Notes: generated by a model from the sequence alone, not told the origin. Counted from the first letter of the stretch, positions 3,548 through 55,246 are shown. The stretch is 64,000 bases of DNA from Dehalococcoidia bacterium (GCA_034420955.1 DAOUKV010000024.1:83443-147442); one strand, 5' to 3'. Made by a program: numbers and translations.

Positions 3548-3734
3548 ATCGGAACTCCCTGACCCTTGTGTATGGGGATAGTGTATATCGGATTGGGTTG
3601 GATGACTAGGGGCGAGTTACAATGCGGGGCGGTTCTAGCCTTGAACACTTTGCGGCCTGCCAATAGGTTAAACAGGGACAGGACGATGAGAGGATCGTAC
3701 CTTCATCGAGGAGGAAGGGAACCGGAGGTTAGGC

Positions 3735-4142
3735 ATGGTTGACACGGTAACTCCGGAAGTTCGCAGCGCGATAATGGCGCGCGTCAAGGCTAAGGGCATG
3801 AAGCCCGAGATGCGGGTGCGTCGGCTGCTGCATGGGCTGGGATATCGGTACCGGCTGCACCGCTCGGATCTGCCCGGCAAGCCCGACCTGGTGTTCGTGT
3901 CGCGGCGTAAGGTGGTGTTCGTCAACGGCTGCTTCTGGCACTATCACCCGGACTGCTCCCGCGTCCGGATCCCGGCGTCCAATCGAGAATATTGGATAGG
4001 CAAGCTGGAAGGGAACCGGTCCCGCGACGTTCGGAATACCGCGCTGCTGGAGGCGGGAGGATGGGGTGTGATGACGGTGTGGGAGTGTGAACTGCGCGAC
4101 ATCGAGGATGCGGAGCGGCGGCTGGTGGCATTTCTGGGGTAG
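3735..4142 (+). CDS. vsr: Very-short-patch repair endonuclease (T:G mismatch endonuclease)
   Basis: 135 aa with the Vsr hallmarks RSAIMARVK, KPDLVF and FVNGCFWHYH. GGAGG lies upstream of the ATG. Confidence 0.9.
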   Translation: MVDTVTPEVRSAIMARVKAKGMKPEMRVRRLLHGLGYRYRLHRSDLPGKPDLVFVSRRKVVFVNGCFWHYHPDCSRVRIPASNREYWIGKLEGNRSRDVRNTALLEAGGWGVMTVWECELRDIEDAERRLVAFLG

Positions 4143-4299
4143 GACAGATTCTGACGCAGAGACGCGAAGGAACCAATCAGACCTCATGCGCTCACGAGAC
4201 CGCAGTTTTGAATGGGATCGCAAGACTCTAGGAACATCCAAATTTCTTTGCGCCTTTGCGCCTTTGCGTTTAGAATGGAGGCGTTCAGGGAGGGCCTCT

Positions 4300-5334
4300 A
4301 TGAAGTTCGGTTCGTTTGTGTTTCCGGTCAGCCACAGCGCGGAGCGGGATGGGACGATTATTGACAGTACGCTGGCGGAGATCGAGCTTCAGGACGCGAT
4401 CGGTTTCGAGGCGGCGTGGCTGACGGAGCATCACTTCGACGGCGCGTGCGCATACGCGGATCCGTTGGTGTTCGGGGCGGCGGTGGCGGCGCGGACGCGG
4501 CGCATCAAGATCGGCTTCGCCGTCGTGGAGATGGCGTTCCACCACCCGGTGCGACTGGCGGCGCAAACCGCGCTGCTCGACAACCTGAGCCATGGACGCC
4601 TGATCGTCGGAATCGGGCGCGGCTCAGCGTACAACACATACGAGTATCTGGGCTTCGGGGTGCCGATGGATGAGGGCGTGGAGCGGCTGGCGGAAGCGGA
4701 AGATCTGGTGATGTCGGCGTGGACGGGCGAGGCGGTTCGGCACGACGGGCGGTTCTGGGACGTATCGTTCCCGGCGCTGCGTCCAATGCCTTACCAGAAG
4801 CCGCACCCGCCGCTGGTGCGCGCGTGCATCAGCGAGCGTTCGACGCGCGAGATGGCGCGCATCGGTCGTCCGGTGCTGATCGGCGTGCAGGAAGACGACG
4901 AGATTCGCGCCCGCATCGAGGCGTACACGACCGAGATGCGCGACGCCGGCTTCTCAGAGCCTGAGGTGCAAACCGCGCTGGATCTGTGCTGGTTCTCGAA
5001 GAACGTGTTCGTGGCCGAGAGCTACGACGAGGCGCGCGAGCTTTGCGAGCCGGGTTTCCGACGCGAGCGCAAGCACTTCCGCGAGGCGAGGGAGCTGTAC
5101 AACCCCGAGGGCTTCCCACCGCTGGACCCGACCAAGCCGCTTCCGGCGGGCGAGGACTTCGAGAAGGCGTGCATCGTCGGAACGCCGGAACAGGTTGCGG
5201 AGCAGATCGCCAATCTGCGCGATCTGGGCGTCCGCAACCTGATGATGAAGCTGAACATCGGCGAGATGGATAGCGAGGAGGTTCTGCGCTCCATCCGGCT
5301 GTTCGGCGACGAGGTGATGCCGAGGTTTGAGTAG
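4300..5334 (+). CDS. LLM-class flavin-dependent oxidoreductase (luciferase-like monooxygenase)
   Basis: In ORF 4087..5334 the homology begins at MKFGSFVFP (ATG 4300, preceded by GGAG/AGGGAGGG). The motif AWLTEHHF is typical of the LLM fold. Confidence 0.8.
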   Translation: MKFGSFVFPVSHSAERDGTIIDSTLAEIELQDAIGFEAAWLTEHHFDGACAYADPLVFGAAVAARTRRIKIGFAVVEMAFHHPVRLAAQTALLDNLSHGRLIVGIGRGSAYNTYEYLGFGVPMDEGVERLAEAEDLVMSAWTGEAVRHDGRFWDVSFPALRPMPYQKPHPPLVRACISERSTREMARIGRPVLIGVQEDDEIRARIEAYTTEMRDAGFSEPEVQTALDLCWFSKNVFVAESYDEARELCEPGFRRERKHFREARELYNPEGFPPLDPTKPLPAGEDFEKACIVGTPEQVAEQIANLRDLGVRNLMMKLNIGEMDSEEVLRSIRLFGDEVMPRFE

Positions 5335-7354: not shown

Positions 7355-10300
7355 ATGGGCGCCAATCGTTTGCGCGAACCCTGGCGAGGAGTAAAGTCCA
7401 CTGTGAATTCCAAAAGTATACGCCGTGGCATTGTTCTTTTGGTAGCCCTCTCGGTGGCTATTCCCGGGATAGTGGTGGGAACGACGCTGTCGCAGCGTTC
7501 CGAATCACCCGACGAGCCCAACCCCGAGCTAACGTTGGAACAGACACAGGACTCGATCTCAAGTTCCGTCCCCCTCAAGCCCGACGCTCCGACGCTCACG
7601 CCGGGACACTTGAAGCTGGACGTATCGTGGAGCGCGCCCGGCAGTGGCGATACTGCGATTACAGGCTACAAGCTGCAGTACAAAGAAACCTCCGCAGCCG
7701 ACCAGATCGGGACCGGCAGCGCCCCTTCCACCGGCTGGGTGACGAGCGTCCAAAGCGGCGAGGCGACTAGAGCAACTATCGCAGGGCTGACTAGAGACAC
7801 GAGCTACGACGTGCGGGTACTAGCCACCAACATCGATGGCGACGGCCCCTGGTCCGACGAGGCGAGCGGCGCGCCCACCGAGTTGCGTATCGGGTTCACA
7901 TCCGCCTCCGCCACCTACGCTGAGACCGACAGCGCAGGCGCGCAGGCGGTCCGGTTCCATACGGTGAGCGGGACGATTCCACAGTCGGGAATCGACATTG
8001 ACTGGCAGATAGGCAGCGGCTCCACCGCGACAGGAACCGACGGAACAACTTGCTCGGCGGGGGATGACTTCCGGGCGCCCACGTCAGGCTCCGTCCGTCT
8101 CACTCAGTCGAGCGGCGCCCTACAACTGACGATCTGCGGCGATAACGTCGTCGAACCAAGCGAGACCATCGAGATAGAAATCGTGCCGAGGGCAGGGCGC
8201 TATAGCGGCGACGCCACCATGACGATCACCATCGAGGACGACGACGCTCCAGAGGGAGTGACGGTGACGCCCGGCGACGAGTCGTTGGAGGTCACGTGGA
8301 GCGAGCCAATAGTCCAGGGGTCGCTGGCGTTCTACGAGGTGCAGTACAAGGAGACTGGCGCCGAAGACTGGCCGACCGACCATACCGACGAAACCGACAC
8401 ATCCATCACCATAGACGACCTTGCCAACGACGTTAGCTACGACGTGCGGGTGCGCGCCGTGGCCACCGGCGTTACCGGGGCATGGTCGTCGCCGCAGACC
8501 GGTACTCCGCGGCAGGGCCTGAACCTGTCTTCGAACGCCAACCTGAGCGGCCTGACGGCGAGCGGCGGCTCCAGCGCGGACGGCGAGTTCACGGAGCTGA
8601 CGCTGACACCGGCCGCCTTCGACAAGGCGACGACGAGCTATACGGCGTCGGTAGATAACTCCATCACTCACGTGAAGCTGACGCCTACGGTGGAGGACAC
8701 CGGCAACGCCACGGTGAAGGTCGGCAAGGGGACAAGCCTGACGTCGGTGACCAGCGGTTCGTCCAGTTCCGCGATCGCGCTCGACGTGGCCGTCAACGCC
8801 ATCAAGGTCGAGGTGACAGCGCAGGATGCCACCAAGAAGACCTACACTGTGACCGTGACGCGGGCCCAGCAGGAGATCCAGACCCCCACAGCGCTGAACC
8901 TGGGTGTGGACTACGCTAAGCTCGACGAGGGCATGACCGCGACCGTCATCGCCATACTGAACCACCTGGCGGTCGAGGGCGGCTTCGAGGCGTCCCTTAC
9001 GTTCGCAGGCAGCGCCGACTTGAAAGGCGAGGTCAACGAGGGCGAAGAAGATTACACGGCGAGTAGTTCTACCATCGTCATTGCCGAGGGCAATGCAACG
9101 GCCACTGTGGCTCTCACCATCGCCGACGACATGGTGGACGAGGACGACGAGACCATCATCCTCAACGCCAATCCCCCAAGCGGTGTCTCCGTAAACGGCG
9201 TTACCATCACCATTAGCGACAACGACACGGCGGGAGCGACCTTGAACACGGGAAGCCTCAGCGTGGCCGAGAACGCGACCAACAACTATACCGTGGTCCT
9301 AGACACCAAGCCTGTCCACGACGTGATAGTTACACCGTCCAGCTCGTCCCCGGCGACGGCGACGGTGAGCGACGCGCTAACGTTCACGCCGGACAACTGG
9401 AGCGTGCCGCAGCCGGTAACGGTGACGGGGGTGGCCGCAGGCGCCACGTCCGTAACTCACTCTGCCGCAAGCTCGGACGCGAAGTACAACGGCAGTTCCG
9501 TCAGCATCGACTCCGTGGCGGTGACGACGGTTTCGAAACCGACCAACCTGAAGGTGACGCCCCAGGCATACAACGGCGGCCCCCTGTTGTTGATCGGGTT
9601 CGACGCGACCGCAGACGGGCACTCGGTTTTGACACAGGTGAAACAGGACACCGGCAGTTGGCCGGCGCCCTCGCTGGATCCTTCCCTGCCCTCCGACGCG
9701 AGCATAGACACCACCGGACTCAGCCGGGCGACAGCGCGGCGAGTAGTCGGCCTGGTGAAAGGGACCACCTACGACGTGCGAGCGCACGTAATAGGCGGAA
9801 ATCCAATCGCCGTCATCAGCGGCTCTTCATCCGACGCCGCGCAGGCCACCACCTGGACCGTGCCGGACGCGCCCACGGGAGTGAGCGCCGCGGCCGGCAA
9901 CACACAGATCGCGTTGACGTGGACCGAGCCTGCCAACAAGGGCGGCGCGGGCGCGTCCATCACCGGCTACGACGTGCAGTACAAGGCGAGTACCGACACC
10001 GAATGGACCGACTTCACCCACACCGACACTGCGACTAGCGCGATCATCGGCAGCCTGAACAACGGCACGACCTACGATTTGAGGGTGCGCGCCAGGAACG
10101 GCATCGACCCCGGAAGCGCATGGGCCACGCCCGAGGACGACGATCCCGCCTTGAGAACGCCGAGGTTGTCCGGCGACGCCACCCTCAGCTCTCTGGAGCT
10201 GACCGACGATGACGACAACGTCATATCCCTCGACGAGAGCTTCGCCTCCGACGTCTATGCCTACACAGTTACAGTTCCGGGTACGGTGGACTCGGTGAAA

Positions 10301-11301: not shown

Positions 11302-11895
11302 CTACCCCGCCGCCTGTCGCCGCGCCCTCGTCTGTTCGCGGTGGCGGATGTAGAGGGTCGCCTCGTCCACAGCCATGCGGCCTATAGGGCCGGAGGCGTA
11401 CAGGGAGTTGAAGACGACGCCCCCGCGTATGATGATGAACTCCATCGGCTGTAGGTAGCGTCCGTGAGCCGCGTCTTCCGTCCACCAGGCGCCGAGCGCG
11501 GCGACGTCTTCCTCTGTTACGCCGTATGCTACGGGGAAGGATATGCCGGCCTTGCTCGCCATCTCAGCGGCGTCTTCCTTGCTCTCGGTGGTGGCGGCGA
11601 TCGCCGTAATCCCCATCTTGTCCAAACGTTCCATTCTGTCTTCGTAGCTGGCTAACTGCCGCACGCAGTACGGTCACCACTTGCCCCGGTAGAAGAGGAG
11701 CGCGACGTAGCGGTTCGGAATCTCGCGCGGCAGCTCTAACGAGCCTCCGTCTATGAGGTTGAGGTTGAGCTTTGGAAAGCGGTCTCCCTGTTGGAGTTTG
11801 TCGGACATGAGGACTCTCCGAGTGGTCTGCTCTGTCGGTCTGGCATCGTTGCGTTCAGGATACTGCAACGCTAGGGCAATTTCCACCGCACCCAT
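11302..11895 (-). CDS. Peroxiredoxin-like (AhpC/TSA, redoxin-fold) protein with an in-frame TGA at the first Cys of CxxC; candidate selenoprotein (UxxC)
   Basis: ORFs 11674..11895 and 11302..11664 are in the same frame and contiguous. Read through, the junction is ...ALLFYRGKW-TGA-PYCVRQLASYE..., the conserved FYRGxWCPxC redox motif with TGA (11674-11676) replacing the Cys codon. Confidence 0.6.
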
Positions 11896-11972: not shown

Positions 11973-14546
11973 TTGTCGCTGAAGTTGTTGAGCGCCCTAA
12001 TCGTTGCGCTGGCGGTCGCCGTAGGCGTTGTCGCGCAGGCATATGTGAATAATGTTGAAGCTCAGGGGGCGGGCGGCATGACGCTCACCGTCCGCAACGT
12101 TACGGGCGGCAACCCTTTGACGCCGCCCATCGCCATAGTCCACGACGGCAGCGTCATCACCGGCGCGTCCTCGCTGGACGGCCTGGCGGGCTTGGAAGAG
12201 CTGGCTGAGGCCGGGGCGCAGGAGCCACTGGCAACCACGCTTGCCGGACTGGCCGGCGTATCCGAAGTCGTCAAGATCGAGACGGCTCCCATTCCGGGAG
12301 GCGAGGAGGCGACCGGCACGGTGACAGCGATGCCGGGCGACTACGTTACCGTTGTCGCCATGCTCGCCTGCACCAACGACGCGATTGCCGTCGGAACGGC
12401 AATCATGTCTGAAAGTGGAGCAATGTCTTCTGGCCGAGTGTACGACGCCGGCACTGAAGTGAATTCCGAGACCGCCGCCTCCGTGCCGTGCCTGGGAGGC
12501 GCGGGCGTGTCGGACGCTAGCGGAGAAGGTTCACTAATGCTGCACGACGGCATCATGGGCGGCGCCGACCTGGACGCGACGACCCACGGCTGGGACGTGG
12601 CTGCGATGCAGTTGTTCGTCCACGCTGCAGGGACAGACGCTCCTGCGGCCGCCAACCCGACGCTGACGCTGGAAAACCTAACGGCCGGGCAGCCAATCAC
12701 CCCGCCCGTCGTCGTGGTGCACGATCCGAATGTGGCCCCGCTGACGTACGAATCTCCGGACGATCTCGACGGCATTGACGACCTCTCAGAAGGCGGCGTG
12801 ACAGGCGACCTGATAGCGACGCTGGGCGGCAGGCCCGGCGTGTTGTCCGCATTCGTTCTTAACACGGGCGGACCCATCCTGCCCGGGCAAGAGTACAACA
12901 CCGTCATTGCCGGAGTGGACGGCGCGGCGGTGTCCGTCGCCGGAATGTTCGCCTGCACAAACGATGCCTACATCCTGGCTACGGCGATGATCGAGCTGGA
13001 CGATGACGGCAAGCCAACCACTTTGGAAGCTATGGCGTCCGTCATAGACTCCGGCTCAGAATCGAACGATGAGACTGCGGATACGGTGCCCTGTCTGGGT
13101 GGCGAGGCCCTCTCCAGCGGGCTGGGCGAAGGCAGTCGGTCCGAGCACCCAGGAATCCAAGGAGGCGCTGACCTAGACTCGGAGACACACGGCTGGACCG
13201 CTGAAACCACCGCCAAGCTGACGCTGTGCAACCTCCGAGCCGACCAGCCGGAGTGGACCAAGACGCTGGTTCAGCAAGCGGTGGACCGCTACAAAAAGAC
13301 CGGTCTCGAGGAAACCACGGCCTACTACAACACCGATGAGAGCCGCGACGGTCAGTGGTACGTGTTCATCGCCGACCGGAGCTCCATCCTGCGCTCGCAT
13401 GTAACGCACGTAGGATGGCTCCTGGACCGCGTGCTGGGTCCGGACGGATATCCGGCCGGCAAGATGGTCAATGCCGTGGCCAATGAAGACGGCAGCTGGG
13501 TTAGCTACACTTACGTGAACCCGGCGTCCGGCGAAGTCGAGAGGAAGCATTCTTGGGCCATCCGGCATAGCGGGATTCTGTTCGGTTCGGGTTGGTACGA
13601 GGCGGGAGCTCCGAAGTCGGATCCCGCTGCCTACACCAAAGAGTTAGTCCAGCGGGCCACGGACCTGTACGACGTTTTGGGAATAGAAGATACGGTCGAA
13701 TACTACAACATGCGGAAGAGCGTGGACGGGCAGTGGTACGTCGCTATCGCCGATGAGAACAACGTTACCATAGCTTATCCGACCCACCCACACCGGATCG
13801 GAATGTCCTTGGAAGACAGCGTCACCTTCAATAGCTATCCGGTCGGCGCGGCCATAGTCGCCGTGGCTGATGAGGACGGAGGCTGGACCAGCTACACTCA
13901 CACGAATCCGGCGACCGGCGTGGCCGAGCTCAAGCATGCTTGGGCCATAAGGCATGACGGGCTGCTCTTCGGTTCGGGCTGGTACGAGCCAAGCCCTTCG
14001 AAGGACTCCCCCGAGGCTTACACCAAGGCGTTCGTGGAGCAGGCCGTCGAGCTGCACAAGGCCGTTGGCGACGAGAGGACCATCGCGTACTACAACACTC
14101 CCGAGAGCGTGGACGGCGAGTGGTACGTGTTCGTTGTTCAGGGGGATGCTATCGTCGCTCATGCAACCGTTCCCGAGAACATAGGCCAGAGCCTCCTGGG
14201 TCCGCTTGGGACCGACTCGACCGGCGAGGAGTTCGGCTCGGCCATCATAGACGCGCCGGAAGGCGGAGCGTGGGTAGATTACACCTACCTCAACCCGGCC
14301 TTAGGCGGGGAAGAGATAAAGCACACCTGGGTGGTGAGGAGCGGCGATCTGGTCTTCGGGTCCGGTTGGTACGAGCCGGTTCCGGCGCCCACGCCGACTC
14401 CGGAGCCTGCACCGGAGCCAGTGGATGAGATGCCTGAGACGGGCGACTTCTCGCTGACGGCGGGCTGGGCGCTTGCGCTTGCCCTGGCGGGCGCGCTCAT
14501 CGCCCTGGGCGGCGCGGTCACGATCGCTCGCCAGCGCGGACGCTAG
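11973..14546 (+). CDS. Cell-surface protein: signal peptide, 2 spondin_N-like domains, 3 single-Cache-like repeats, C-terminal sortase-type sorting signal
   Basis: 857 aa with a TTG start after GAGGAGG. Two units are of the type LT(V/L)xN(V/L)TxGxP(L/I)TPP(I/V)xxVHD...ACTNDA. Three repeats of about 125 aa are of the type YTKxxVxxAVxLY...YYN...DGQWYV...W(V/T)SYT(Y/H)xNPAxG...KHxWAIRHxG(I/L)LFGSGWYE. The C-terminus is MPETG plus a hydrophobic helix plus RQRGR. Confidence 0.75.
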   Translation: MSLKLLSALIVALAVAVGVVAQAYVNNVEAQGAGGMTLTVRNVTGGNPLTPPIAIVHDGSVITGASSLDGLAGLEELAEAGAQEPLATTLAGLAGVSEVVKIETAPIPGGEEATGTVTAMPGDYVTVVAMLACTNDAIAVGTAIMSESGAMSSGRVYDAGTEVNSETAASVPCLGGAGVSDASGEGSLMLHDGIMGGADLDATTHGWDVAAMQLFVHAAGTDAPAAANPTLTLENLTAGQPITPPVVVVHDPNVAPLTYESPDDLDGIDDLSEGGVTGDLIATLGGRPGVLSAFVLNTGGPILPGQEYNTVIAGVDGAAVSVAGMFACTNDAYILATAMIELDDDGKPTTLEAMASVIDSGSESNDETADTVPCLGGEALSSGLGEGSRSEHPGIQGGADLDSETHGWTAETTAKLTLCNLRADQPEWTKTLVQQAVDRYKKTGLEETTAYYNTDESRDGQWYVFIADRSSILRSHVTHVGWLLDRVLGPDGYPAGKMVNAVANEDGSWVSYTYVNPASGEVERKHSWAIRHSGILFGSGWYEAGAPKSDPAAYTKELVQRATDLYDVLGIEDTVEYYNMRKSVDGQWYVAIADENNVTIAYPTHPHRIGMSLEDSVTFNSYPVGAAIVAVADEDGGWTSYTHTNPATGVAELKHAWAIRHDGLLFGSGWYEPSPSKDSPEAYTKAFVEQAVELHKAVGDERTIAYYNTPESVDGEWYVFVVQGDAIVAHATVPENIGQSLLGPLGTDSTGEEFGSAIIDAPEGGAWVDYTYLNPALGGEEIKHTWVVRSGDLVFGSGWYEPVPAPTPTPEPAPEPVDEMPETGDFSLTAGWALALALAGALIALGGAVTIARQRGR

Positions 14547-46919: not shown

Positions 46920-47834
46920 TCATCGCCCCAGATACAGAATCGCCGCAGAGGTCGCCAGCCAGAGCGCGATCGCAGCTATCATCGGCAGATCGGTCATCAC
47001 TATGGTCTCGGGGTCCTCCCCGGCGTCTCGCAAATGGACTAGCTGGATGTATCTGAACATACCGTAGGCTACGAACGGGATGGTCAGCATCATGGAATGG
47101 TTGTCGGGCAGATTGGGGGCGGTGAAGGTATATAGGGCGTAGCTGACGAGGGCGGAGGTGGCGACGAGAGCGGTTAGCTGGTCGAGCATGGGCAGGGTGT
47201 AGGACGCCAAGGCGTCACGCTGTTCGGAGGCGGTCTCCCCTGCCCTGGCAAGCTCGCTTCTGCGCTTGGAGACGGCTATGAACAGCGCCGCCAGTCCGGT
47301 GCAGAGATACAGCCAGGGAGATATAGGCAGCTCGACGACCGCCGCTCCGGCTAGGACGCGCAACACGAACCCGGAAGCTACCGAGAACACGTCCAGCAAC
47401 GGCGCTCGCTTGAGTCCCAGCGAGTAGGCTATCTGTATGATGACGTATGCGAGGGCGACCGCTCCGAACGGGACGGCTACGAGGAAGGCCGGGTAGAGAC
47501 ATGCGAGGGGCAGCGCCAACCCTAAGACAAGGGCGAAGCGCGGCGGTATCGCGCCGGAGGCTACGGGACGGCGGCGCTTGACTGGATGCGCGCGGTCTCT
47601 TTCGATATCGAGGGCGTCGTTGAACAGGTAGAGTCCGCCGCTGAGCGCGCAGAACAGCAGCAGGGCGAGCGCGGTGGACGCAAGCATATCAAGCGCGCCA
47701 GATAGGTCGTCCAAGCTCCACGCCTCGTTGAGGGTGAAGAACAGGGGCAGGAAGACGAGCAGGTTCTTGACCCACTGGAGGGGGCGCATCGCGCGGACGA
47801 CGGCTAACGGCAGGCGAGCGGCGTTTCGTGGCAT
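46920..47834 (-). CDS. UbiA-family prenyltransferase, decaprenyl-phosphate phosphoribosyltransferase-like
   Basis: The N-terminus is MRPLQWVKNLLVFLPLFF, with NDALDIERDR (Asp-rich motif) and multiple TM helices. The start is ATG 47834. Confidence 0.75.
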   Translation of the reverse strand: MPRNAARLPLAVVRAMRPLQWVKNLLVFLPLFFTLNEAWSLDDLSGALDMLASTALALLLFCALSGGLYLFNDALDIERDRAHPVKRRRPVASGAIPPRFALVLGLALPLACLYPAFLVAVPFGAVALAYVIIQIAYSLGLKRAPLLDVFSVASGFVLRVLAGAAVVELPISPWLYLCTGLAALFIAVSKRRSELARAGETASEQRDALASYTLPMLDQLTALVATSALVSYALYTFTAPNLPDNHSMMLTIPFVAYGMFRYIQLVHLRDAGEDPETIVMTDLPMIAAIALWLATSAAILYLGR

Positions 47835-47867
47835 GGCGCAGCCATTATACGCGCCGAGCCATTGCTG

Positions 47868-47897
47868 TTGACACCCCCAAAATTCGTTCGCTATCAT
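47868..47897 (+). promoter_or_regulatory. Sigma-70-type promoter of groES-groEL
   Basis: TTGACA (47868-47873), an 18-nt spacer, then TATCAT (47892-47897), immediately upstream of the CIRCE element. Confidence 0.6.
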
Positions 47898-47901
47898 GCT
47901 A

Positions 47902-47928
47902 TTAGCAGTCTCCCTTTTAGACTGCTAA
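47902..47928 (+). promoter_or_regulatory. CIRCE operator (HrcA binding site)
   Basis: TTAGCAGTC-N9-GACTGCTAA is a perfect inverted repeat. It matches the consensus TTAGCACTC-N9-GAGTGCTAA with one compensated change and lies 55 bp upstream of groES. Confidence 0.85.
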
Positions 47929-47982
47929 TCGAGATACTGGAAATTACGGACGTAGGATATACAGGCAGGAGGTATAGTCGAA

Positions 47983-48273
47983 ATGGCAGATTTCAAGCCG
48001 CTGGGGAACCGCGTCGTTGTGGAGCCCCAGGAGGGCGAGGAGCAGATGAGCGCGGGCGGCATCTACATTCCCGACACGGCCAAGGAAAAGCCGCAAGAGG
48101 GTATGGTAGTGGCCGTCGGCCCGGGCCGGCTGTCCGACGACGGCTCGCGCGTGCCAATGGAAGTGGAAGTAGGCGACACTGTGGTCTATTCCAAGTACGC
48201 CGGCACTGAGTACCGCGAAGGCGACACCGAGTACCTGGTGCTGCGCGAGGACGACATACTCTTCAAGCGATAG
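47983..48273 (+). CDS. groES: Co-chaperonin GroES
   Basis: 96 aa: [12 protein letters not shown]...[16 protein letters not shown]. Confidence 0.95.
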
Positions 48274-48343
48274 CGGCCCAAGATTCGAGAATGCCTCCGC
48301 CAAGAGCGGGGGCGCGAAATTAGAGAAGGAGGACTGAACGGCT

Positions 48344-49960
48344 ATGCCCAAGCAGCTACAGTTCAGCGAGGAAGCAAGGGCCGCGATGAAGCGCGGCATA
48401 GACATTATGGCGGACACGGTAGGCGTAACGCTCGGCCCGCGCGGTCGCAACGTAGTGCTGGACAAGAAGTTCGGCCCGCCCCAGGTCTGCTCGGACGGCG
48501 TAACCATCGCCAAGGAGATCGAGCTCGAAGACCCGTTCGAGAACATGGGCGCGCAGCTCCTGAAGGAAGCGGCGAGCAAGACCAATGACGTGGCTGGCGA
48601 CGGCACCACGACCGCGACGGTTCTGGCGCAGGCGATCATCCACGAGGGATTCAAGAACATCGCCGCCGGCGCGAACCCTATGGCGCTCAAGCGAGGCATC
48701 GAGAAGGGCGTCGTCGCCATGCGAGACGCCATCGAGGACATGTCCACGCCGGTCGAGGGCCGTATGCAGATAGCGCAGGTCGCCTCCCTTTCGGCGCACG
48801 ACGACGAGATGGGCGAGCTCATCGCCGACGTGATGGAGAAGGTCGGCAAGGACGGCGTGATAACGGTCGAAGAGTCGAAGGGCCTCTCCTACGAGCAGGA
48901 GTTCGTGGAAGGGATGCAGATCGACCGCGGCTACATTTCGCCTTACTTCATCACCGACCAGGAGCGGATGGAAGCGGCGATTGACGACCCCTACATCCTG
49001 ATCACCGACAAGAAGATCTCCGCCGTCTCCGACGTGCTGCCCGCGCTGGAGAAGATCCTGCAGGTCGGGAAGAACGTGGTAGTGGTGGCTGAGGACATCG
49101 AGGGCGAGGCGCTCGCTACGCTCGTAGTCAACAAGCTGCGCGGCACGCTGAACTGCGTCGCCGTCAAGGCTCCCGGATTCGGCGCCCGCCGCAAGGCGAT
49201 GCTCGAAGACATGGCGGTCCTGACGGGCGGCCAGGTCATCAGCGAGGAAGTCGGACGCAAGCTGGACTCGGTGGAAGTATCCGACCTGGGCCGCGCGCGC
49301 CGCATCGTCGCTTCCAAGGAAGAGACGACGTTCGTTGACGGCGCCGGCACCGAGGGCGAAATCTCGGGCCGCATCAACCAGATCAAGGCGCAGGTCGAAG
49401 AGACGACTTCGGACTTCGACCGCGAGAAGCTGCAGGAGCGGCTGGCGAAGCTGTCCGGCGGCGTGGCGATCATCAAGGTCGGCGCGGCGACGGAGGTCGA
49501 GCTCAAAGAGAAGAAGAACCGCGTCGAGGACGCTCTGTCGGCGACGCGCGCAGCTGTCGAAGAGGGCATCGTTCCCGGCGGCGGCCTCGCGGTGCTGCGA
49601 GCCTCCACCGCGATGGACAGCCTGGCGCTAGGCGGCGACGAAGCCACCGGCGCGAGCATCCTCAACACCGCGCTGCAGCGGCCCATCAAGCTCATCTCCG
49701 AGAACACCGGAGTTTCCGGCGAGGTCATCCTGGCCGACAGCCTGGAGAGCGAAGGCGACTGGGGCTACGACGCCGAGGCGGGCGAGTTCTGCCACCTGCT
49801 CGAGAAGGGCATCATGGACCCGGCGAAGGTAACGCGCGCGGCCATCGAGAACGCCGCGTCCGTAGCCGCGATGGTGCTGACGACCGAGTCGCTCATCACC
49901 GACGTGCCTGATCCCGTTCCCGCGGGCGGCGCTCCGGCGATGCCTCCGATGGACTACTAG
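48344..49960 (+). CDS. groEL: Chaperonin GroEL
   Basis: 538 aa with [22 protein letters not shown] and a C-terminal ...[11 protein letters not shown] tail. Confidence 0.97.
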
Positions 49961-49983
49961 GCGACAGTGACAGACGGATAGCT

Positions 49984-50030
49984 GATTAGCTAGACATGAA
50001 GGGGCGGGTTCTGAGAGGGGCCCGCCTCTT
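49984..50030 (+). repeat. Direct repeat copy 1 (47 bp, contains the groEL terminator hairpin)
   Basis: GATTAGCTAGACATGAAGGGGCGGGTTCTGAGAGGGGCCCGCCTCTT is identical to 52290-52336. It contains the hairpin GAAGGGGCGGG...CCCGCCTCTTC. Confidence 0.9.
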
Positions 50031-50087
50031 CTTCGCGTGTCCCTCAATGCGGCTCAGCAAGCTTTCCAGATTCATTTTCGATTTCCC

Positions 50088-50140
50088 TTGACATTGCTAC
50101 AATCTTTCTCTATGCTTGCTACAACATTGCTAAGGAGGTG
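50088..50140 (+). promoter_or_regulatory. Promoter, phased TTGCTA direct repeats (possible operator) and a strong SD for the cassette gene
   Basis: TTGACA (50088-50093), a 17-nt spacer, then TATGCT (50111-50116). TTGCTA(C/A)A occurs at 50094, 50116 and 50127, spaced 22 and 11 bp. AAGGAGGTG (50132-50140) lies 5 nt before the ATG. Confidence 0.55.
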
Positions 50141-50145
50141 CTGGC

Positions 50146-52287
50146 ATGACACTGAAGCCAGATACCGGAAGATATCTAGCCCGGCTGAGAGATGAGGCTG
50201 GACTGAAGCAGAACGAGTTGGCAAAGCGAGTCGAGTGGAGCCCTGCCGTGCTTTCCCGCATAGAGTCCGGGGAGCGTCCCGTGTCGACCGACGAGATCGA
50301 GTCCATCCTAGACGCCATCGGGTCGGACAAGGCAAAGGAATTCAAGATGACACATGACAGGGAGTGGCGCGAGATTGAGCGGCCGGTTCTAGGGCATCCC
50401 GATGAAGGGCTGCTCTGGGAAGCGGATACAGCGATCCATGATGTCAAGTTGCTTCTTCTTCACCCCGACACCAAAGTCCCATTTGGAAAACGCTTGGAGG
50501 AAATAGAAGGCGGGTTGCGCGATGCCGCTAACCTAGTCCGTAGCACGGAACATGCAATCGCGTTCGTGGGCGACATCGGAGTAGGCAAGACCACCAGCAT
50601 ATGCCGAACGTTGGGCTTGGAGATCAGGGACGACGAGATGTCGAAATCCGACGCCGTCCTCGAAGTCGGTGCTGGTGGCGTGACCGTGTGTGAGGTTCAC
50701 ATCACGCATGGTCCCGACTATGGCATTTTCATAGAACCTATGAGTGATGCGGAAGTCAGACGAGAAGTCGGTGAATTTGCGAACCTGATCAAGAGTCCTC
50801 CACAGACAGACCAAGACAGCGAGGAACCAATCGGAACTTCAAAGGAAATCGAGCGCGCCATCCGCAACATGAGCGAGCTTATCAAGATAAGGCATATGTT
50901 CAAGGAAAAGGATGGAAAAACCAGACGTGAGACAGAAGACCCCGTTGAACAACTAGCCGATGTGGCAACGAATGCGGACGCCCTCGCGGTAGAGATACTA
51001 GCTCGGATGAATCTAGCGGATAGGAACAAGCGTGAGCTATGGTACTCGCCAACCGAGAACGCGAGCGATCCGCTCGATTGGCTGAAGCAGAATTTCCGGT
51101 CGTTAAACAACGGAAGGCATCCGGAGTTCTCGATACCCAGACGGATGGAGATTATCACGCCTGATCCAATCCTCAACGAGAAATCCCTGTCAATACGGAT
51201 AATTGACACGAAGGGAATAGATGGGAATGCTCGGCGCGGGGATATCGAGAATCTCTTCGGTGAGAGAAACACAGTCTCCATCCTGTGCTCGGATTTCAAT
51301 TCAGTCCCTTCTCCATCAGTGCAGCAGCTACTCAAGCGCGCATCCGACGTTGGATACGGAAACATCAAGAACAAGGCTGCGATCCTCGGACTGCCGAAGC
51401 ATAACGAAGCTTTGGCAGTCAAGGACGACGACGGAACTCCCGCCGAAGACGCCGAAGATGGCTACTACATGAAGGGTGAGCAGGCTGCGAATAGGTTAGC
51501 TTCCCTTGGAACGCCCAGTGTTCCCGTCGAGTTCTTCAACGCATTTGATGACGATCCGGAAAGGCTACGTTCATTCATGCTAGAACGGGTCCGGAAGCTC
51601 AGGAATAGGAATGCCGATGAACTGAAGCAGATCATCGAAGACGCTAGAGAACTAGTAGATAACTACGAACGGGAGCAGAATCTGGAAACACAGCGAGTGG
51701 TGGCGCGTCAGCTAAACACCTGGTTGATCAACAACCGCACCGTCGATCTGTCTATGGCGCCAGGCTTTGAGCAGAGTCTGATGGACTCTATCTCCGTTGT
51801 ACACGCTAGTACGCTAAGGGCGAGCGTTCGCAGAGAAGGAGACTGGCACAACTTGGACTACTCCCATGAGTTGAGCTTTGGCGCCAGGCTTGCCGCGGTA
51901 CGTGTGGTAAGTTCCAAGAGAGATGAACTCACCGCCATCACTAACTACCTCCTACAAGATTCCGAGTCGGATGGGACATCTGGGCTGGTTCGTCAAGTGC
52001 AGCGTGTCGTTGATACCGGCGTTGCTGAGTTGTACGGCAAGTGTGCTCTGGCCGGAGAAGTTCATTATGGATACCTGAAACAGGACTCAAACATATGGCA
52101 TAAATCGGATCGCGAGTGGGGACGCGGCCCCGGGTACAAGGGCCGCGTGTCAAAGCACCACACAGTTTGGTTCAACGATTGGCTTAGCGAGCATAGCAGG
52201 TCTCGCATCGCGGATTTAATCGAGGAGGAGTGGACATCGAGCCTCGATCGTGCGTCAGCCATACTCGATGACGCGCTGTCCGACTGA
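50146..52287 (+). CDS. XRE-type HTH fused to a P-loop GTPase-like NTPase and a long helical C-terminal region; no family I can name
   Basis: 713 aa. The N-terminus LRDEAGLKQNELAKRVEWSPAVLSRIESGERPVS is an XRE HTH. Walker A is FVGDIGVGKTT (50569-50592) and a G3-like motif IIDTKGIDG lies at 51205-51216. GC is visibly lower than in the flanking genes. Confidence 0.85.
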   Translation: MTLKPDTGRYLARLRDEAGLKQNELAKRVEWSPAVLSRIESGERPVSTDEIESILDAIGSDKAKEFKMTHDREWREIERPVLGHPDEGLLWEADTAIHDVKLLLLHPDTKVPFGKRLEEIEGGLRDAANLVRSTEHAIAFVGDIGVGKTTSICRTLGLEIRDDEMSKSDAVLEVGAGGVTVCEVHITHGPDYGIFIEPMSDAEVRREVGEFANLIKSPPQTDQDSEEPIGTSKEIERAIRNMSELIKIRHMFKEKDGKTRRETEDPVEQLADVATNADALAVEILARMNLADRNKRELWYSPTENASDPLDWLKQNFRSLNNGRHPEFSIPRRMEIITPDPILNEKSLSIRIIDTKGIDGNARRGDIENLFGERNTVSILCSDFNSVPSPSVQQLLKRASDVGYGNIKNKAAILGLPKHNEALAVKDDDGTPAEDAEDGYYMKGEQAANRLASLGTPSVPVEFFNAFDDDPERLRSFMLERVRKLRNRNADELKQIIEDARELVDNYEREQNLETQRVVARQLNTWLINNRTVDLSMAPGFEQSLMDSISVVHASTLRASVRREGDWHNLDYSHELSFGARLAAVRVVSSKRDELTAITNYLLQDSESDGTSGLVRQVQRVVDTGVAELYGKCALAGEVHYGYLKQDSNIWHKSDREWGRGPGYKGRVSKHHTVWFNDWLSEHSRSRIADLIEEEWTSSLDRASAILDDALSD

Positions 52288-52289
52288 CA

Positions 52290-52336
52290 GATTAGCTAGA
52301 CATGAAGGGGCGGGTTCTGAGAGGGGCCCGCCTCTT
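52290..52336 (+). repeat. Direct repeat copy 2 (47 bp), functioning as the terminator of the cassette gene
   Basis: Identical to 49984-50030. It starts 3 nt after the cassette stop codon and is followed by TTTTGAG. Confidence 0.9.
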
Positions 52337-52458
52337 TTGAGTTGGACGAGTGCGCGACCAGCCCGTACTCCATACACAGGGCCTGCGCCACCACGCCATA
52401 CATGGCGGTATGGTAGAATTTAGATGAACCAACCGGAAACGCGACAGGCGGTGAGTGA

Positions 52459-53625
52459 GTGACTGAAGAGACGAAATCCACCGAGGCGCGCCTGGGCGAT
52501 CTGATGCGCGAGTTCGAGGCGACCAGGGATGGGCAGGTGGGCTATCCGGTCAACCAGAATTTCGACTACTCGGAGCTCATGCCGTTCATGCGGTACTGCA
52601 TGAACAACGTGGGCGACCCGTTTCACGACAGCAACTTCCGAACCAACACTCACGAGTTCGAGCGCGAGGTGGTCGGCGCCTTCGCTGATATGATGCGCCT
52701 GCCGCGCGAGGACGCCTGGGGCTACGTTACTTCGGGCGGCACCGAGGGGAACATGTACGGCCTGTACATCGGGCGCGAGCTGTTCCCGGATGGGGTATTC
52801 TACTTCTCCCAGGATACGCATTACAGCGCGGTCAAGATTCTGCGTCTGCTGAACGCGCGCAACATCATGATCAAGAGCCAGGACAACGGCGAGATAGACT
52901 ACGACGACCTGTACGAGACCATACGCATCAACCGCGACTTGCCCGCCGTTGTCATGGCGAACATCGGGACGACGATGAAGGGCGCGGTGGACGACGTCCT
53001 CAAGGTGCGCGACATACTGGACGATCTGGCGATTACGAAACGCTACATCCATGCGGACGCCGCGCTGGGTGGCATGATTCTGCCGTTCGTGGACGAGCCG
53101 CAGCCATACGGGTTCGACATGGGCTTCGACAGTGTGGCGATCAGCGGACACAAGATGATCGGTTCTCCACTCCCCTGCGGGGTGGCGCTAACCCGGAAGG
53201 ATTACGTGTCGCGCATCGCCCGCTCGATAGAGTACGTGGGCGTGCTGGATACGACGCTCGCCGGCTCGCGCAGTGCGATGACTCCGCTGTTCCTGTGGTA
53301 CGCCTTCGAGAAGTACGGGATGGACGGGTTCCGCGAGATGGTGCAGGGCTGCCTGGAGATGGCGGAGTACGCCGTCCAGCGCTTCAACGACAGCGGCATA
53401 CCGGCGTGGCGCAACCCGAACTCGGTCATCGTCGTCTTTCCGCAGCCTCCGCGCTCGGTTACCGACAAGTGGCAGATAGCGCAGTACGAGGGCGTCTGCC
53501 ACATCATCACCATGCCGCACGTTACGCGCGAGATTGTGGATGAGGTCGTGGACGACTGCCTGCGAGCCGAGCGCGAGACGACCGACAGGATCTTCTTTGA
53601 TCCGCGCTGGCGTGGGCAGGTGTGA
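52459..53625 (+). CDS. hdc: Pyridoxal-dependent histidine decarboxylase (group II decarboxylase)
   Basis: 388 aa with the typical N-terminus GYPVNQNFDYSEL...NNVGDPF and the PLP-lysine motif SGHKMIGSPLPCG. GTG start. Confidence 0.8.
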   Translation: MTEETKSTEARLGDLMREFEATRDGQVGYPVNQNFDYSELMPFMRYCMNNVGDPFHDSNFRTNTHEFEREVVGAFADMMRLPREDAWGYVTSGGTEGNMYGLYIGRELFPDGVFYFSQDTHYSAVKILRLLNARNIMIKSQDNGEIDYDDLYETIRINRDLPAVVMANIGTTMKGAVDDVLKVRDILDDLAITKRYIHADAALGGMILPFVDEPQPYGFDMGFDSVAISGHKMIGSPLPCGVALTRKDYVSRIARSIEYVGVLDTTLAGSRSAMTPLFLWYAFEKYGMDGFREMVQGCLEMAEYAVQRFNDSGIPAWRNPNSVIVVFPQPPRSVTDKWQIAQYEGVCHIITMPHVTREIVDEVVDDCLRAERETTDRIFFDPRWRGQV

Positions 53626-54159: not shown

Positions 54160-54318
54160 GGAGCGGAGCTAGTCTAGCGTGGTCGTGTTCCGCCATCGAT
54201 TCAAGCGATCAATTGGCGGCGACGGACGGAGCCTGAGATTGCTGTTGCGCTCTTCCCAATTGTGCGGTAGGGTGAGGGCGTGGGATTCCCAAGCTACACC
54301 CAAGTGAGTTGCGCCGAA

Positions 54319-55035
54319 ATGACTATCATCGAAAGAAGAGTCGCGGGCATACTGTTGATCGTCGGCCTCCCGCTGCACATAATCGCGGAGGTTACACGGC
54401 CCCTCACCGACGTATCCCTCCCGGGCATAGTCAGCCCGCTTGTCCTGTTTATACTCGAAAATCTGGGAGCGATTGTCCTAGTCGCTTTCGCAGTCGCGCT
54501 CATCTATGGCTTTTGGCGTTTGATGGGAACCGGGACTCGACTGGATTTGGCGGGGCGCATTGGGCTGATATTGGTAGCTTTCGGAGCGTCGACATTTCTC
54601 GTTGGCAACCTGGCCAATACCATAGTCATGACTCTGGCCGAATACACCGTCGATCGAGCGCCACTTTCTGAACTTCTGGAAGAAGGTGTAGACGCCGCTC
54701 TCCAGCTCATCATTTTTCTTGTCCACGTTGCTTCGACCCAGGGTCTGTTGATCGGAACGCTTGGGCTGTCGGTATTCCTCGCAAAGAGAATGGCAACGCC
54801 GTTTCAGATTTGGTTTGCGCGTGTCGTATTCGCATCCGCCACTGTAACGATAGTCCTTGCATTCCTAGCCCCAGTCGATGAATACTACGCCTACGTGGCG
54901 ATGGCAACATTAGTCCCTATCTGGATCTGGTATATGAACCTTGGGGTCGGGGTGTACCGGCATGGCGACGGCATTATCGCAACGCTGGACGAAGGCAGCG
55001 ACGCGATGGCGGGCGGCGACTTGCAGGTGGCGTAA
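54319..55035 (+). CDS. Hypothetical polytopic membrane protein (DUF4386-like)
   Basis: About 6 hydrophobic helices. ATG 54319 lies within ORF 54280..55035. I recognise no catalytic motif. Confidence 0.5.
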   Translation: MTIIERRVAGILLIVGLPLHIIAEVTRPLTDVSLPGIVSPLVLFILENLGAIVLVAFAVALIYGFWRLMGTGTRLDLAGRIGLILVAFGASTFLVGNLANTIVMTLAEYTVDRAPLSELLEEGVDAALQLIIFLVHVASTQGLLIGTLGLSVFLAKRMATPFQIWFARVVFASATVTIVLAFLAPVDEYYAYVAMATLVPIWIWYMNLGVGVYRHGDGIIATLDEGSDAMAGGDLQVA

Positions 55036-55126
55036 GCGGGCGGCCAATCAGCGCTGGCCTGTCGGTAGCCTTGACAGCGGGGACGGCGGTTGGGTAGCAT
55101 TCTCACAGTAAACAGTTGAATAATCG

Positions 55127-55246
55127 TGGCTCTTATCCAGAGTGGCGGAGGGACCGGCCCCTTGATGCCCGGCAACCGGTCGAGCGCGCGGCGCGCGGCA
55201 AAGGTGCCAATTCCGGCGAGCGCTTGGACGTTCGAGAGATGAGAGT
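55127..55246 (+). promoter_or_regulatory. SAM-I (S-box) riboswitch aptamer
   Basis: CTCTTATCCAGAGTGGCGGAGGGACCGGCCCCTTGATGCCCGGCAACC...GGTGCCAATTCC...AGAGATGAGAG matches the conserved SAM-I core blocks in order. A candidate promoter is TTGACA (55071-55076), 18-nt spacer, TAGCAT (55095-55100). Confidence 0.9.

Follow-up and report, generated by a model that had tools for sequence, protein, structure and literature searches.

A duplicated groEL terminator brackets a gene for an XRE-HTH-fused dynamin-like NTPase in an integrase-free exchange hotspot of a marine Dehalococcoidia bacterium

Layout of the unit behind groEL

The window analysed here is a 64,000-nt stretch of the genome of a Dehalococcoidia bacterium, and its coordinates are counted from the first letter. 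Behind groEL it carries a single gene, encoding a protein of 713 amino acids (aa) in which an XRE helix-turn-helix (HTH) domain is fused to a dynamin-like nucleoside triphosphatase (NTPase). The gene is bracketed by two copies of the 47-mer GATTAGCTAGACATGAAGGGGCGGGTTCTGAGAGGGGCCCGCCTCTT, which occurs exactly twice in the window with 0 mismatches (Table 1); the chance expectation for such a pair was 0 matches in 100 shuffles. The 47-mer comprises 17 nt followed by a 30-nt hairpin with a 15-bp stem (dG -25.5 kcal/mol, z -4.15), and the onset of this terminator hairpin is approximately 40 nt past the groEL stop codon (49958-49960). The gene is the only long open reading frame (ORF) between the two copies; repeat 1 lies 57 nt from its -35 box, and repeat 2 begins 2 nt after its stop codon.

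No integrase or transposase gene was found inside the insert, and no terminal inverted repeats pair its two ends. To judge from the syntenic sister locus L127, which carries Pfam annotation, no recombinase is present within ~7 kb on either side, and the genes within this distance are housekeeping genes only (CCG/Fer4, UbiA, groES, hdc, ACT, mtnA-like IF-2B, MTAP and others). The GC content of the 713-aa gene is 0.539, with a third-position GC content (GC3) of 0.615, compared to 0.653 and 0.879 for groEL and 0.616 and 0.859 for hdc; across the flanks GC3 is 0.78-0.88.

An earlier reading of this DNA made from the sequence alone (the sequence-only reading) had described two perfect 47-mers containing the groEL terminator hairpin, a single gene between them with its own promoter and Shine-Dalgarno sequence, and no integrase or transposase, all of which was borne out by the analysis. 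Its estimate of GC content, about 50% against more than 60%, was right in direction and only roughly so in size, as the computed values are 54% against 62-65%.

Table 1. Features of the groEL-hdc region of the window.
Feature	Position	Strand	Basis
groEL (Cpn60), conserved left flank and hotspot anchor	48344..49960	+	ORF; 99.6-99.8% aa identity to Pfam-annotated Cpn60 of sister loci
Direct repeat copy 1, the resident groEL terminator region	49984..50030	+	17 nt + 30-nt hairpin
Inserted unit of promoter, gene and second 47-mer, adding 2306 bp to the empty site	50031..52336	+	blastn against L127, junction alignment
Sigma-70-like promoter, TTGACA-17 nt-TATGCT	50088..50116	+	10/12 consensus matches
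Operator-like half-sites, TTGCTACAA at 50094-50102 and 50116-50124 and AACATTGC at 50123-50130	50094..50130	+	Motif enrichment
Shine-Dalgarno sequence AAGGAGGTG, 5 nt upstream of ATG	50132..50140	+	Read directly in sequence
Coding sequence, 713 aa: XRE-HTH + predicted dynamin-like NTPase	50146..52287	+	ORF, Pfam, AlphaFold2 (AF2), Foldseek
XRE/Cro-C1 type HTH, aa 8-62	50167..50331	+	Pfam HTH_31 and HTH_3; PDB profile matches
N-terminal helices, aa 87-132	50404..50541	+	AF2
Enlarged P-loop G domain, aa ~133-470	50542..51555	+	AF2 secondary structure, invariant residues, Foldseek
G1 GDIGVGKTT, aa 142-150	50569..50595	+	Motif
G3 DTKG, aa 354-357	51205..51216	+	Motif
C-terminal helical bundle/stalk, aa 471-713	51556..52284	+	AF2 helices, Foldseek
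Direct repeat copy 2, the second terminator copy	52290..52336	+	Exact match; downstream colinear with L127
Pyridoxal phosphate-dependent decarboxylase 'hdc' (Pyridoxal_deC), conserved right flank	52459..53625	+	97-98% aa identity in sister loci

The groEL-hdc interval in conspecific contigs

Conspecific contigs were retrieved by an exact-protein look-up with the GroES of the window and share an identical GroES; contig L001 was found through a look-up of the allele rather than of GroES. The corresponding look-up with the GroEL of the window returned no records, and a metagenome scan with the hdc protein detected only distant relatives (at most 74% identity) without groEL synteny, and no empty site. 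Where they are present on the contig, the flank proteins of the sister contigs are 96-99.8% identical to those of the window.

Contig L127 provides the empty site with a single 47-mer that the sequence-only reading had predicted. Here groEL is followed directly by hdc, with one 47-mer and colinear flanks. By blastn, L127 7938-11044 corresponds to window 46920-50026 and L127 11002-12332 to window 52290-53623, and the 43-nt overlap of these alignments reflects its single 47-mer mapping onto both repeats of the window. After repeat 2 the window reads TTGAG-TTGGACGAGTGCGCGACCAGCCCG..., colinear with L127 after its single copy, TTGCG-TTGGACGAGTGCGC....

Other contigs carry different genes after the same terminator. 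In L128 (10123-11538) and L131 this is a 471-aa PDDEXK_4 nuclease matching PDC-S26 (E 7.5e-81), a candidate single-gene system of PADLOC; in L129 it is a 683-aa gene with an HSP70-like gene, and in L001 an allele 67% identical to the 713-aa gene, then a Uma2 gene. Behind groEL, each of L001, L127, L128, L129, L131 and L132 has a single copy of the 47-mer of the window. The right junctions of L128, L129 and L001 differ from one another, and contain Uma2 or its remnants as well as partial duplicates of the hdc 5' end.

Five states of the groEL-hdc interval were observed at 96-99.8% flank identity: empty, the PDC-S26 nuclease, the pair of 683-aa and HSP70-like genes, and two alleles of the dynamin-like protein (DLP) gene. 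As conspecific contigs hold different cargo or nothing behind the same terminator, the groEL-hdc spacer is a small integrase-free gene-exchange hotspot with at least five states in one species, a marine, SAR202-like member of the Dehalococcoidia. It has the core flanks, alternative cargos, empty state and lack of mobility genes of a core-gene-flanked hotspot free of mobile genetic elements (MGEs), and the insertion of the 713-aa gene is not a one-off event but one state of this recurrent hotspot. The foreign composition of the gene, and its absence or replacement in conspecific genomes, agree with the horizontal acquisition proposed from the sequence alone.

The two-gene cargo of L129 (8609-12459) encodes a ~680-aa protein, with a weak precomputed Pfam HTH_GRAD match, and a ~590-aa HSP70/MreB-like protein, and a pair of this kind is also found nearby in L004 (1-2958) and L005 (9893-13533). 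It gave no meaningful match in PADLOC, and a literature search on HTH_GRAD gave nothing relevant; the pair may be an uncharacterised two-gene conflict system. The 683-aa protein of L129 was considered as a homologue of the window protein and rejected, since comparison showed the two to be unrelated.

The sister genomes differ in which intergenic positions hold a Uma2 gene (PF05685, putative restriction-endonuclease-like); such genes are at L001 8413-8781, L127 4917-5456, L129 12824-13630, L137 ~3540-4341 and, as a remnant, L128 ~11540-11700. Those adjacent to the hotspot are accompanied by truncated duplicates of the hdc 5' end (L129 12585-12795, L137 3290-3526). The Uma2 genes may be selfish nuclease genes which promote local recombination. 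A further variable feature was seen in L130 (1-1954), where genes for an McrB-like AAA_5 ATPase and McrC lie ~7 kb upstream of groES; they are absent in the aligned part of the corresponding window region.

Alleles of the gene in related Dehalococcoidia

Alleles directly behind groEL were found in L137 (72% identical), L001 (67%), L005/L006, a chromosome-scale Dehalococcoidia metagenome-assembled genome (59%), and L011 (51%, with a groEL identity of 93%); most homologues in the Dehalococcoidia are not adjacent to groEL. The DNA between groEL and the gene in L137 is ~79% identical to that of the window, and on both sides of the allele of L005/L006 lies the groEL terminator of that genome, duplicated over 24-27 nt. 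Between the window and L001, the 67% identity of the alleles against 98% for the flanks implies allele replacement, as mutation in place cannot explain it.

The allele of L004 (66%) is at a different position where groEL itself is not adjacent, yet ~35 nt of groEL 3' coding sequence and the terminator precede the dynamin-like gene (L004 5793-5890). This groEL-tail remnant is a fossil of relocation along with flanking DNA, and together with the partial hdc 5' duplicates of L129 and L137 it indicates that flanking DNA travels with the cargo.

Two more general propositions were rejected. That all alleles retain a decayed terminator copy is without statistical support for L001, L004 and L011, and marginal for L137, where the similarity of the downstream hairpin to the window-type terminator is itself only marginal. 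That the family is a mobile element which is generally repeat-flanked does not hold either, as among ~75 family loci only the window (47 bp) and L005/L006 (24-27 bp) have flanking repeats above the control distribution, with L035 (17 bp) and L050 (16 bp) being marginal.

In L004 a hairpin element, GGATTCCCGC-N4-GCGGGAATGAC, flanks a two-gene segment (4880-4932 and 8253-8306, 85-88% identity). A similar element is present in L129 (~13755-13790) and none in the 64-kb window, and it may be a dispersed repeat of the repetitive extragenic palindromic (REP)-like kind. The apparent 53-bp repeats around the L004 gene pair are similar to it and may be dispersed copies. Downstream of the allele in L005 (8250-9647) are genes for a 177-aa protein and a class I methyltransferase matching PADLOC mad2 (E 3.2e-25), and mad3- and mad8-like genes are among the neighbours of other relatives.

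Promoter and putative operators

TTGACA or TTGATA boxes are also present upstream of the alleles in L001, L004, L005 and L137. Palindromic motifs of the type AGCAAYRTTGCT or TTGCWGCA are 20-140x denser in the region from -160 to +10 of family genes than over the remainder of these loci, and a perfect 22-bp palindrome, CTGCTAACAACGTTGTTAGCAG, lies upstream of the allele in L011. In the window the half-sites TTGCTACAA (50094, 50116) and AACATTGC (50123) overlap the promoter spacer and the -10 box. From these sequence motifs, the HTH domain would be expected to autoregulate its own gene through the putative operators.

Domains, motifs and predicted fold of the protein

The HTH domain was recognised by Pfam HTH_31 (E 5.5e-15, 55.9 bits, cut-off 27) and HTH_3 (E 2e-10, 40.9 bits, cut-off 23), with PDB profile matches to C.BclI, ClgR and lambda-repressor-like proteins, and an XRE HTH was found in 32 of 37 relatives. 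When the NTPase part was searched against Pfam, NCBIfam, PADLOC and PDB sequences, as a single sequence and as a profile, only the HTH and generic P-loop fragments were returned. PADLOC gave no match to aa 80-713, and the failure of the protein to match any named defence system is consistent with what had been stated from the sequence alone. Public records annotate the protein only as a transcriptional regulator, and a literature search for HTH-dynamin fusions found nothing relevant.

An AF2 model was built on 39 homologues (pLDDT 87, pTM 0.84). In this predicted structure the HTH is followed first by a pair of long helices, then by a large alpha/beta P-loop domain (aa ~133-470) and lastly by a helical bundle (471-711), with long C-terminal helices at 471-505, 572-604, 606-645 and 679-711. 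The sequence-only reading had proposed an XRE HTH fused to a P-loop NTPase with Walker A GDIGVGKTT and DTKG, followed by ~350 aa of helical C-terminal sequence; the domains and motifs were found as described, but the helical C-terminus is only ~240 aa long (471-711), residues 133-470 forming the enlarged G domain. A structure search, also suggested there, indicated a dynamin-like fold for the AF2 model. The top 30 Foldseek matches in the PDB all belong to the dynamin superfamily, with a probability of 1.0 at ranks 1-12 and of 0.44-1.00 across the 30. They include Campylobacter DLP1/DLP2 (5owv/5oxf; E 5e-8, best 4.6e-08), IniA (6j72; E 2e-7) and Nostoc BDLP (2j68; E 1e-6) and, more weakly, mitofusins, EHD4, Drp1 and MxA. 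The alignments to BDLP, DLP1/2, IniA and mitofusin are full-length, and the best viral match is a giant-virus dynamin protein. The predicted structure has the large G domain and helical neck and trunk of the dynamin fold, and in the model the N-terminal helices (87-132) and C-terminal bundle resemble the neck and trunk of BDLP and mitofusin.

Residues G142 and K148 (G1), G177, T180, and D354 and T355 (G3) are invariant down to 25% identity; G147 is nearly invariant and G357 at least 90% conserved across relatives. The G2 candidate, T180 within GGVTVCEV, was assigned from its position between G1 and G3. These two motifs are ~200 aa apart in the window protein, roughly twice the usual dynamin spacing. 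After strand 376-383 the conserved element is LCSxF, of which C381 and F384 are at least 90% conserved. The protein is acidic (net charge -32) and soluble, and no membrane paddle or transmembrane segment was found (maximum 19-aa Kyte-Doolittle mean 1.02).

It shares with bacterial DLPs and mitofusins the helices, the P-loop G domain with conserved G1, switch-I Thr and G3 DxxG, and the long helical bundles. It differs from them in its N-terminal XRE HTH, the lack of a G4 motif and of a paddle, and in being acidic and soluble; moreover it is encoded by a single gene and not as a DLP pair, and is unrecognised by Pfam Dynamin_N. On the basis of the model, the most fitting description is that of a bacterial dynamin-like NTPase which is fused to an XRE HTH and lacks a paddle.

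Distribution of the family and its gene neighbourhoods

The NTPase part alone was searched against 1.84 billion representatives of 50%-identity clusters, and matched 845 clusters at E<=1e-3, 588 at <=1e-10 and 254 at <=1e-30. As most members are 700-730 aa long, with the match starting near residue 80, the HTH fusion is mostly conserved. The phyla include Chloroflexota, Latescibacterota, Proteobacteria, Actinobacteria, Cyanobacteria, Myxococcota and others, and genomic members were found in Dehalococcoidia/SAR202, Latescibacterota, Alpha-, Beta- and Gammaproteobacteria, Mycobacterium, Streptomyces, cyanobacteria and Archangium. In PLSDB the family occurs on 19 plasmids, of which nine are conjugative; no homologue was found in phage genomes. 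One homologue, WP_211136444.1 (43.6% identical), is located beside a resolvase gene on the 37.7-kb conjugative IncU plasmid NZ_CP056324.1 of Citrobacter (locus L139, 33838-36048).

An obligatory partner gene was looked for and rejected, as no neighbour is conserved in ~70 loci and the largest cluster spans six loci of one alphaproteobacterial subclade. Neighbours of relatives include GajA, BrxA, PD-Lambda-2_B, HipA, methyltransferases, resolvases, relaxases and transposases. On plasmids they include DUF262 (GmrSD-like), RelE/HigA, restriction-modification (RM) methylases and a helicase, MazF, HNH nucleases and PtuA of Septu (E 3.7e-165).

In one relative, P0258 (L145 161-4841, 921 aa), a SAVED domain takes the place of the HTH and is fused to the same dynamin-like module. 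This SAVED domain scores above the Pfam gathering score and matches the PADLOC model for CBASS-effector SAVED domains (E 1.1e-22). P0258 is the third gene of an overlapping operon, whose other genes encode an AAA_21 ATPase (HEC-01A/AriA/mad3-like, E 1e-30) and a mad4-like protein (E 8e-12), and no CD-NTase was seen beside it within the 6-7 kb contigs. The replacement of the HTH by SAVED implies that the dynamin-like module can act as the output of a sensor domain.

Origin and possible function of the unit

The explanation which best accounts for the observations jointly, and which we consider reasonably probable though well short of settled, is that of an integrase-free hotspot with a cassette recombining through its terminator, the cargo being an autoregulated single-gene dynamin-like conflict or anti-phage protein. 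The two perfect 47-bp copies would then be a recombination-generated junction, as the sequence-only reading had also suspected. The most likely route would be Campbell-type or unequal homologous recombination, or gene conversion, through the terminator copy at the 3' end of the cassette. Strains would swap alleles with the highly conserved groEL gene and the decarboxylase gene as homology arms, and recombination between the same repeats would lead to clean loss and to a single-copy empty site as in L127. This route is favoured because both copies are identical to the resident-type 47-mer and a single-copy empty site exists, and because flank fragments travel with the cargo, no recombinase is present and there is no space for arm sites of an attachment (att) site.

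The repeats could alternatively be the core of att sites (attL/attR) in a site-specific cassette, with a tyrosine or serine recombinase supplied in trans; satellites and integron cassettes are moved in this way by recombinases encoded elsewhere. Perfect repeats flanking the insert, an empty site with exactly one copy, a duplicated segment that restores the target terminator as integrative elements do with tRNA 3' ends, and three different cargos beginning right after the same terminator are all in keeping with this. It is nevertheless unlikely, given that no recombinase lies in the insert or within ~7 kb, that the 57 nt ahead of the -35 box and the 2 nt separating repeat 2 from the stop codon leave almost no room for arm sites, that the cargos of L128, L129 and L001 have the left copy only and heterogeneous right junctions, that neither a GTTRRRY core nor an attC-like imperfect palindrome is present, and that the family at large lacks flanking repeats. 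Known classes of element were rejected on similar grounds. An integrative element with its own integrase would match the repeats and the single-copy attB-like site, but the integrase is absent from the unit and nearby. A transposon or insertion sequence is contradicted by the lack of a transposase ORF and of paired inverted repeats, and by a duplication of 47 bp instead of 2-15 bp, and an integron gene cassette by the unit having its own promoter, a near-perfect 15-bp stem without a GTTRRRY core and flanks of housekeeping genes rather than an array. As improbable as the att-site alternative is a long-resident, vertically inherited regulator or GTPase functionally tied to groESL, whose absences are deletions between terminator copies and whose repeat is a local duplication kept identical by gene conversion and no scar of acquisition. 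Homologues behind groEL in L005/L006, L011, L137 and L001, the groEL-tail remnant in L004, and the fact that recombination between the repeats would yield exactly the empty site of L127 could all be read in this way. Flank proteins of 96-99.8% identity are however combined with alleles of 67%, unrelated cargo or nothing; GC3 is at least 0.2 below that of the flanks; the family is patchy over many phyla and is carried on conjugative and small plasmids; most homologues in the Dehalococcoidia are away from groEL; and, past a strong terminator, the gene is preceded by a promoter of its own. That the structure is an assembly artefact, in which chromosomes with the empty site and a separate 2306-bp circular or tandem element were threaded together by the assembler, we regard as very improbable. 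A look-up with the window protein led to the Logan unitig L138 (SRR13587050), whose 2319 bp correspond to window 50001-52319; it breaks inside both repeats, and a k=31 graph cannot tell an integrated from a circular form. Contig L132 (47-mer at 5032-5078) ends exactly at the last base of the 47-mer, suggesting strain heterogeneity, and the breaks of both at the 47-mer boundary may reflect co-occurring strain variants. Against an artefact, independent assemblies, some of them chromosome-scale, join divergent alleles to groEL (L001, L005/L006, L137, L011), and on the right side of some of these a terminator-like hairpin and chromosomal DNA are present; ordinary reads of 100-150 nt, as well as assemblers with k>=55, reach across a 47-bp repeat, and the inner junctions are independently confirmed by L138.

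As regards function, the 713-aa gene is probably an uncharacterised anti-phage or conflict gene, to judge from sequence and gene context. We infer a defence role, autoregulation, nucleotide specificity, oligomerisation and DNA binding for the protein, as well as the recombination route for the unit. The HTH would bind the palindromic operators over its own promoter, repressing its own gene and possibly tethering the protein to DNA; the G domain, in which G1, G2 and G3 are intact, would drive nucleotide-dependent dimerisation or oligomerisation as in bacterial dynamin-like proteins; and the protein would act as a stand-alone conflict or anti-phage effector. This view, which the sequence-only reading had put forward as plausible, is strengthened by PDC-S26 at the same site, the defence and MGE neighbours of relatives, and the SAVED-fused relative. 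A foreign cassette of non-defence function, such as plasmid or chromosome maintenance, membrane-stress repair, or a transcription factor with an NTPase sensor, seems to us rather doubtful. It would fit with annotated bacterial DLPs that act in membrane repair or fusion (DynA, IniA; PMC8844932 and PDB entries), with family members near Rep/Par genes on small plasmids and near umuDC, and with the public annotation as a regulator only. The protein has, however, no hydrophobic paddle or transmembrane segment, its gene stands alone and is variably present within the species, it recurs beside Septu, DUF262, RM, toxin-antitoxin and Gabija genes, the HTH is swapped for a SAVED sensor in one relative, and the slot is shared with PDC-S26.

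Several observations weigh against the favoured explanation. For RecA-dependent recombination 47 bp is short. No significant second terminator copy was found in L001, L004 or L011, so the terminator repeat is not an obligatory part of the unit, and flanking repeats are missing from almost all other family loci, making the repeat a property of this locus and not of the gene family. Homologues behind groEL in several relatives, including L011, mean that long residence in the lineage is also possible. As for the protein, Pfam Dynamin_N (PF00350) has no match to the window protein at E<=1 and matches only two of 37 relatives (E 0.024), no G4 (N/T)KxD guanine-specificity motif is conserved after G3 in the family alignment, and the Foldseek TM-scores, obtained on a predicted model, are low (0.24-0.34), as expected from the flexible multi-domain arrangement of such proteins. 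The link to defence is guilt by association, from uncontrolled neighbour lists, and several relatives are located among ordinary metabolic genes.

Comparison with known systems

Like the unit described here, tRNA- and tmRNA-targeting islands have direct repeats of tens of bp, a copy in the insert that restores the 3' end of the target, and a one-copy empty site; the present unit is distinguished by having no integrase, no room for arm sites and a single gene in 2.3 kb. In Pseudomonas aeruginosa, cDHS1/2 are MGE-free, core-gene-flanked defence hotspots for which transfer via flanking homology has been proposed (PMC10250203). The groEL-hdc interval resembles such core hotspots (PMC10250203, PMC5635113) in its variable slot, core flanks, candidate defence cargo, lower GC and lack of MGE machinery. 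In contrast to them, its slot is tiny (0 to ~5 kb, one or two genes), is anchored on a groEL terminator in an uncultured marine Chloroflexota lineage, and in this genome the 47-bp duplication of the terminator is explicit and has its counterpart in an empty site with one copy.

Among dynamin-related systems, Eleos or 'Dynamins', a LeoA-LeoBC-like two-gene operon, is anti-phage, and P-loop mutations abolish its defence (10.1101/2022.05.11.491447). Both have a dynamin-fold NTPase in defence-island contexts, but the window locus consists of one gene with an HTH, has no conserved neighbour and gives no PADLOC match for its NTPase part. DynA of Bacillus subtilis is a dynamin-superfamily protein that contributes to phage resistance (PMC8844932); it is a housekeeping, membrane-binding and internally duplicated protein, whereas the window protein is accessory, lacks membrane-binding segments and has a DNA-binding domain. 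In relation to CBASS SAVED-effector fusions, the relative P0258 is similar in having an N-terminal SAVED domain, here followed by the same NTPase module, whilst the window protein carries an HTH and not SAVED.

Significance

The locus combines known kinds, dynamin-like conflict proteins and core-gene-anchored hotspots. If confirmed, the family would extend the role of dynamin-like proteins in prokaryotic immunity, for which the known examples are the membrane-associated housekeeping DynA and the two-gene Leo/Eleos, and would add a compact, self-regulated, DNA-binding single-gene form that is a closer functional analogue of eukaryotic Mx. It comprises hundreds of clusters in many phyla and on conjugative plasmids, yet none of Pfam, NCBIfam and PADLOC has a model for its NTPase part of 630 aa. 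With the homologue from the Citrobacter IncU plasmid (43.6%), the hypothesis can be put to a direct test in E. coli. As an example of accessory-gene turnover at a core-gene-anchored hotspot without a mobility enzyme, the locus is unusually clean, as filled, alternative and empty states occur in one species and the filled state has a perfect terminator duplication. To our knowledge, the defence biology of this uncultured marine Chloroflexota lineage is essentially unexplored.

A more far-reaching combination, which we put forward as speculative and think rather unlikely, is that of a new single-protein dynamin-type immune system together with a class of recombinase-free, 'homology-addressed' cassettes. 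In its immune part, a mechanochemical module may be coupled to DNA through the HTH, or to cyclic-nucleotide sensing in the SAVED relative, and not to membranes, and may in effect amount to a bacterial counterpart of Mx that targets nucleic acid or nucleoprotein. In its cassette part, the groEL terminator copy may be an address tag, with entry and exit by Campbell-type recombination at that tag.

Other features of the window

A second single-gene indel is present at window 54168-55069, between the ACT-domain gene and the mtnA-like gene. Its ORF (54280-55035, + strand) encodes 251 aa, has a GC content of 0.552 and GC3 of 0.627, and gave no Pfam or PADLOC match; no flanking direct repeat is evident. 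The gene is missing in L127, is present in L001 and L128 at 97% identity, and reaches only 65% identity in L004. Downstream of it, at 55130-55245 (+ strand) and upstream of the IF-2B/MtnA-like gene, is an S-adenosylmethionine (SAM) riboswitch (RF00162, 84.6 bits, E 3.7e-19), which belongs to the methionine-salvage/SAM-cycle cluster.

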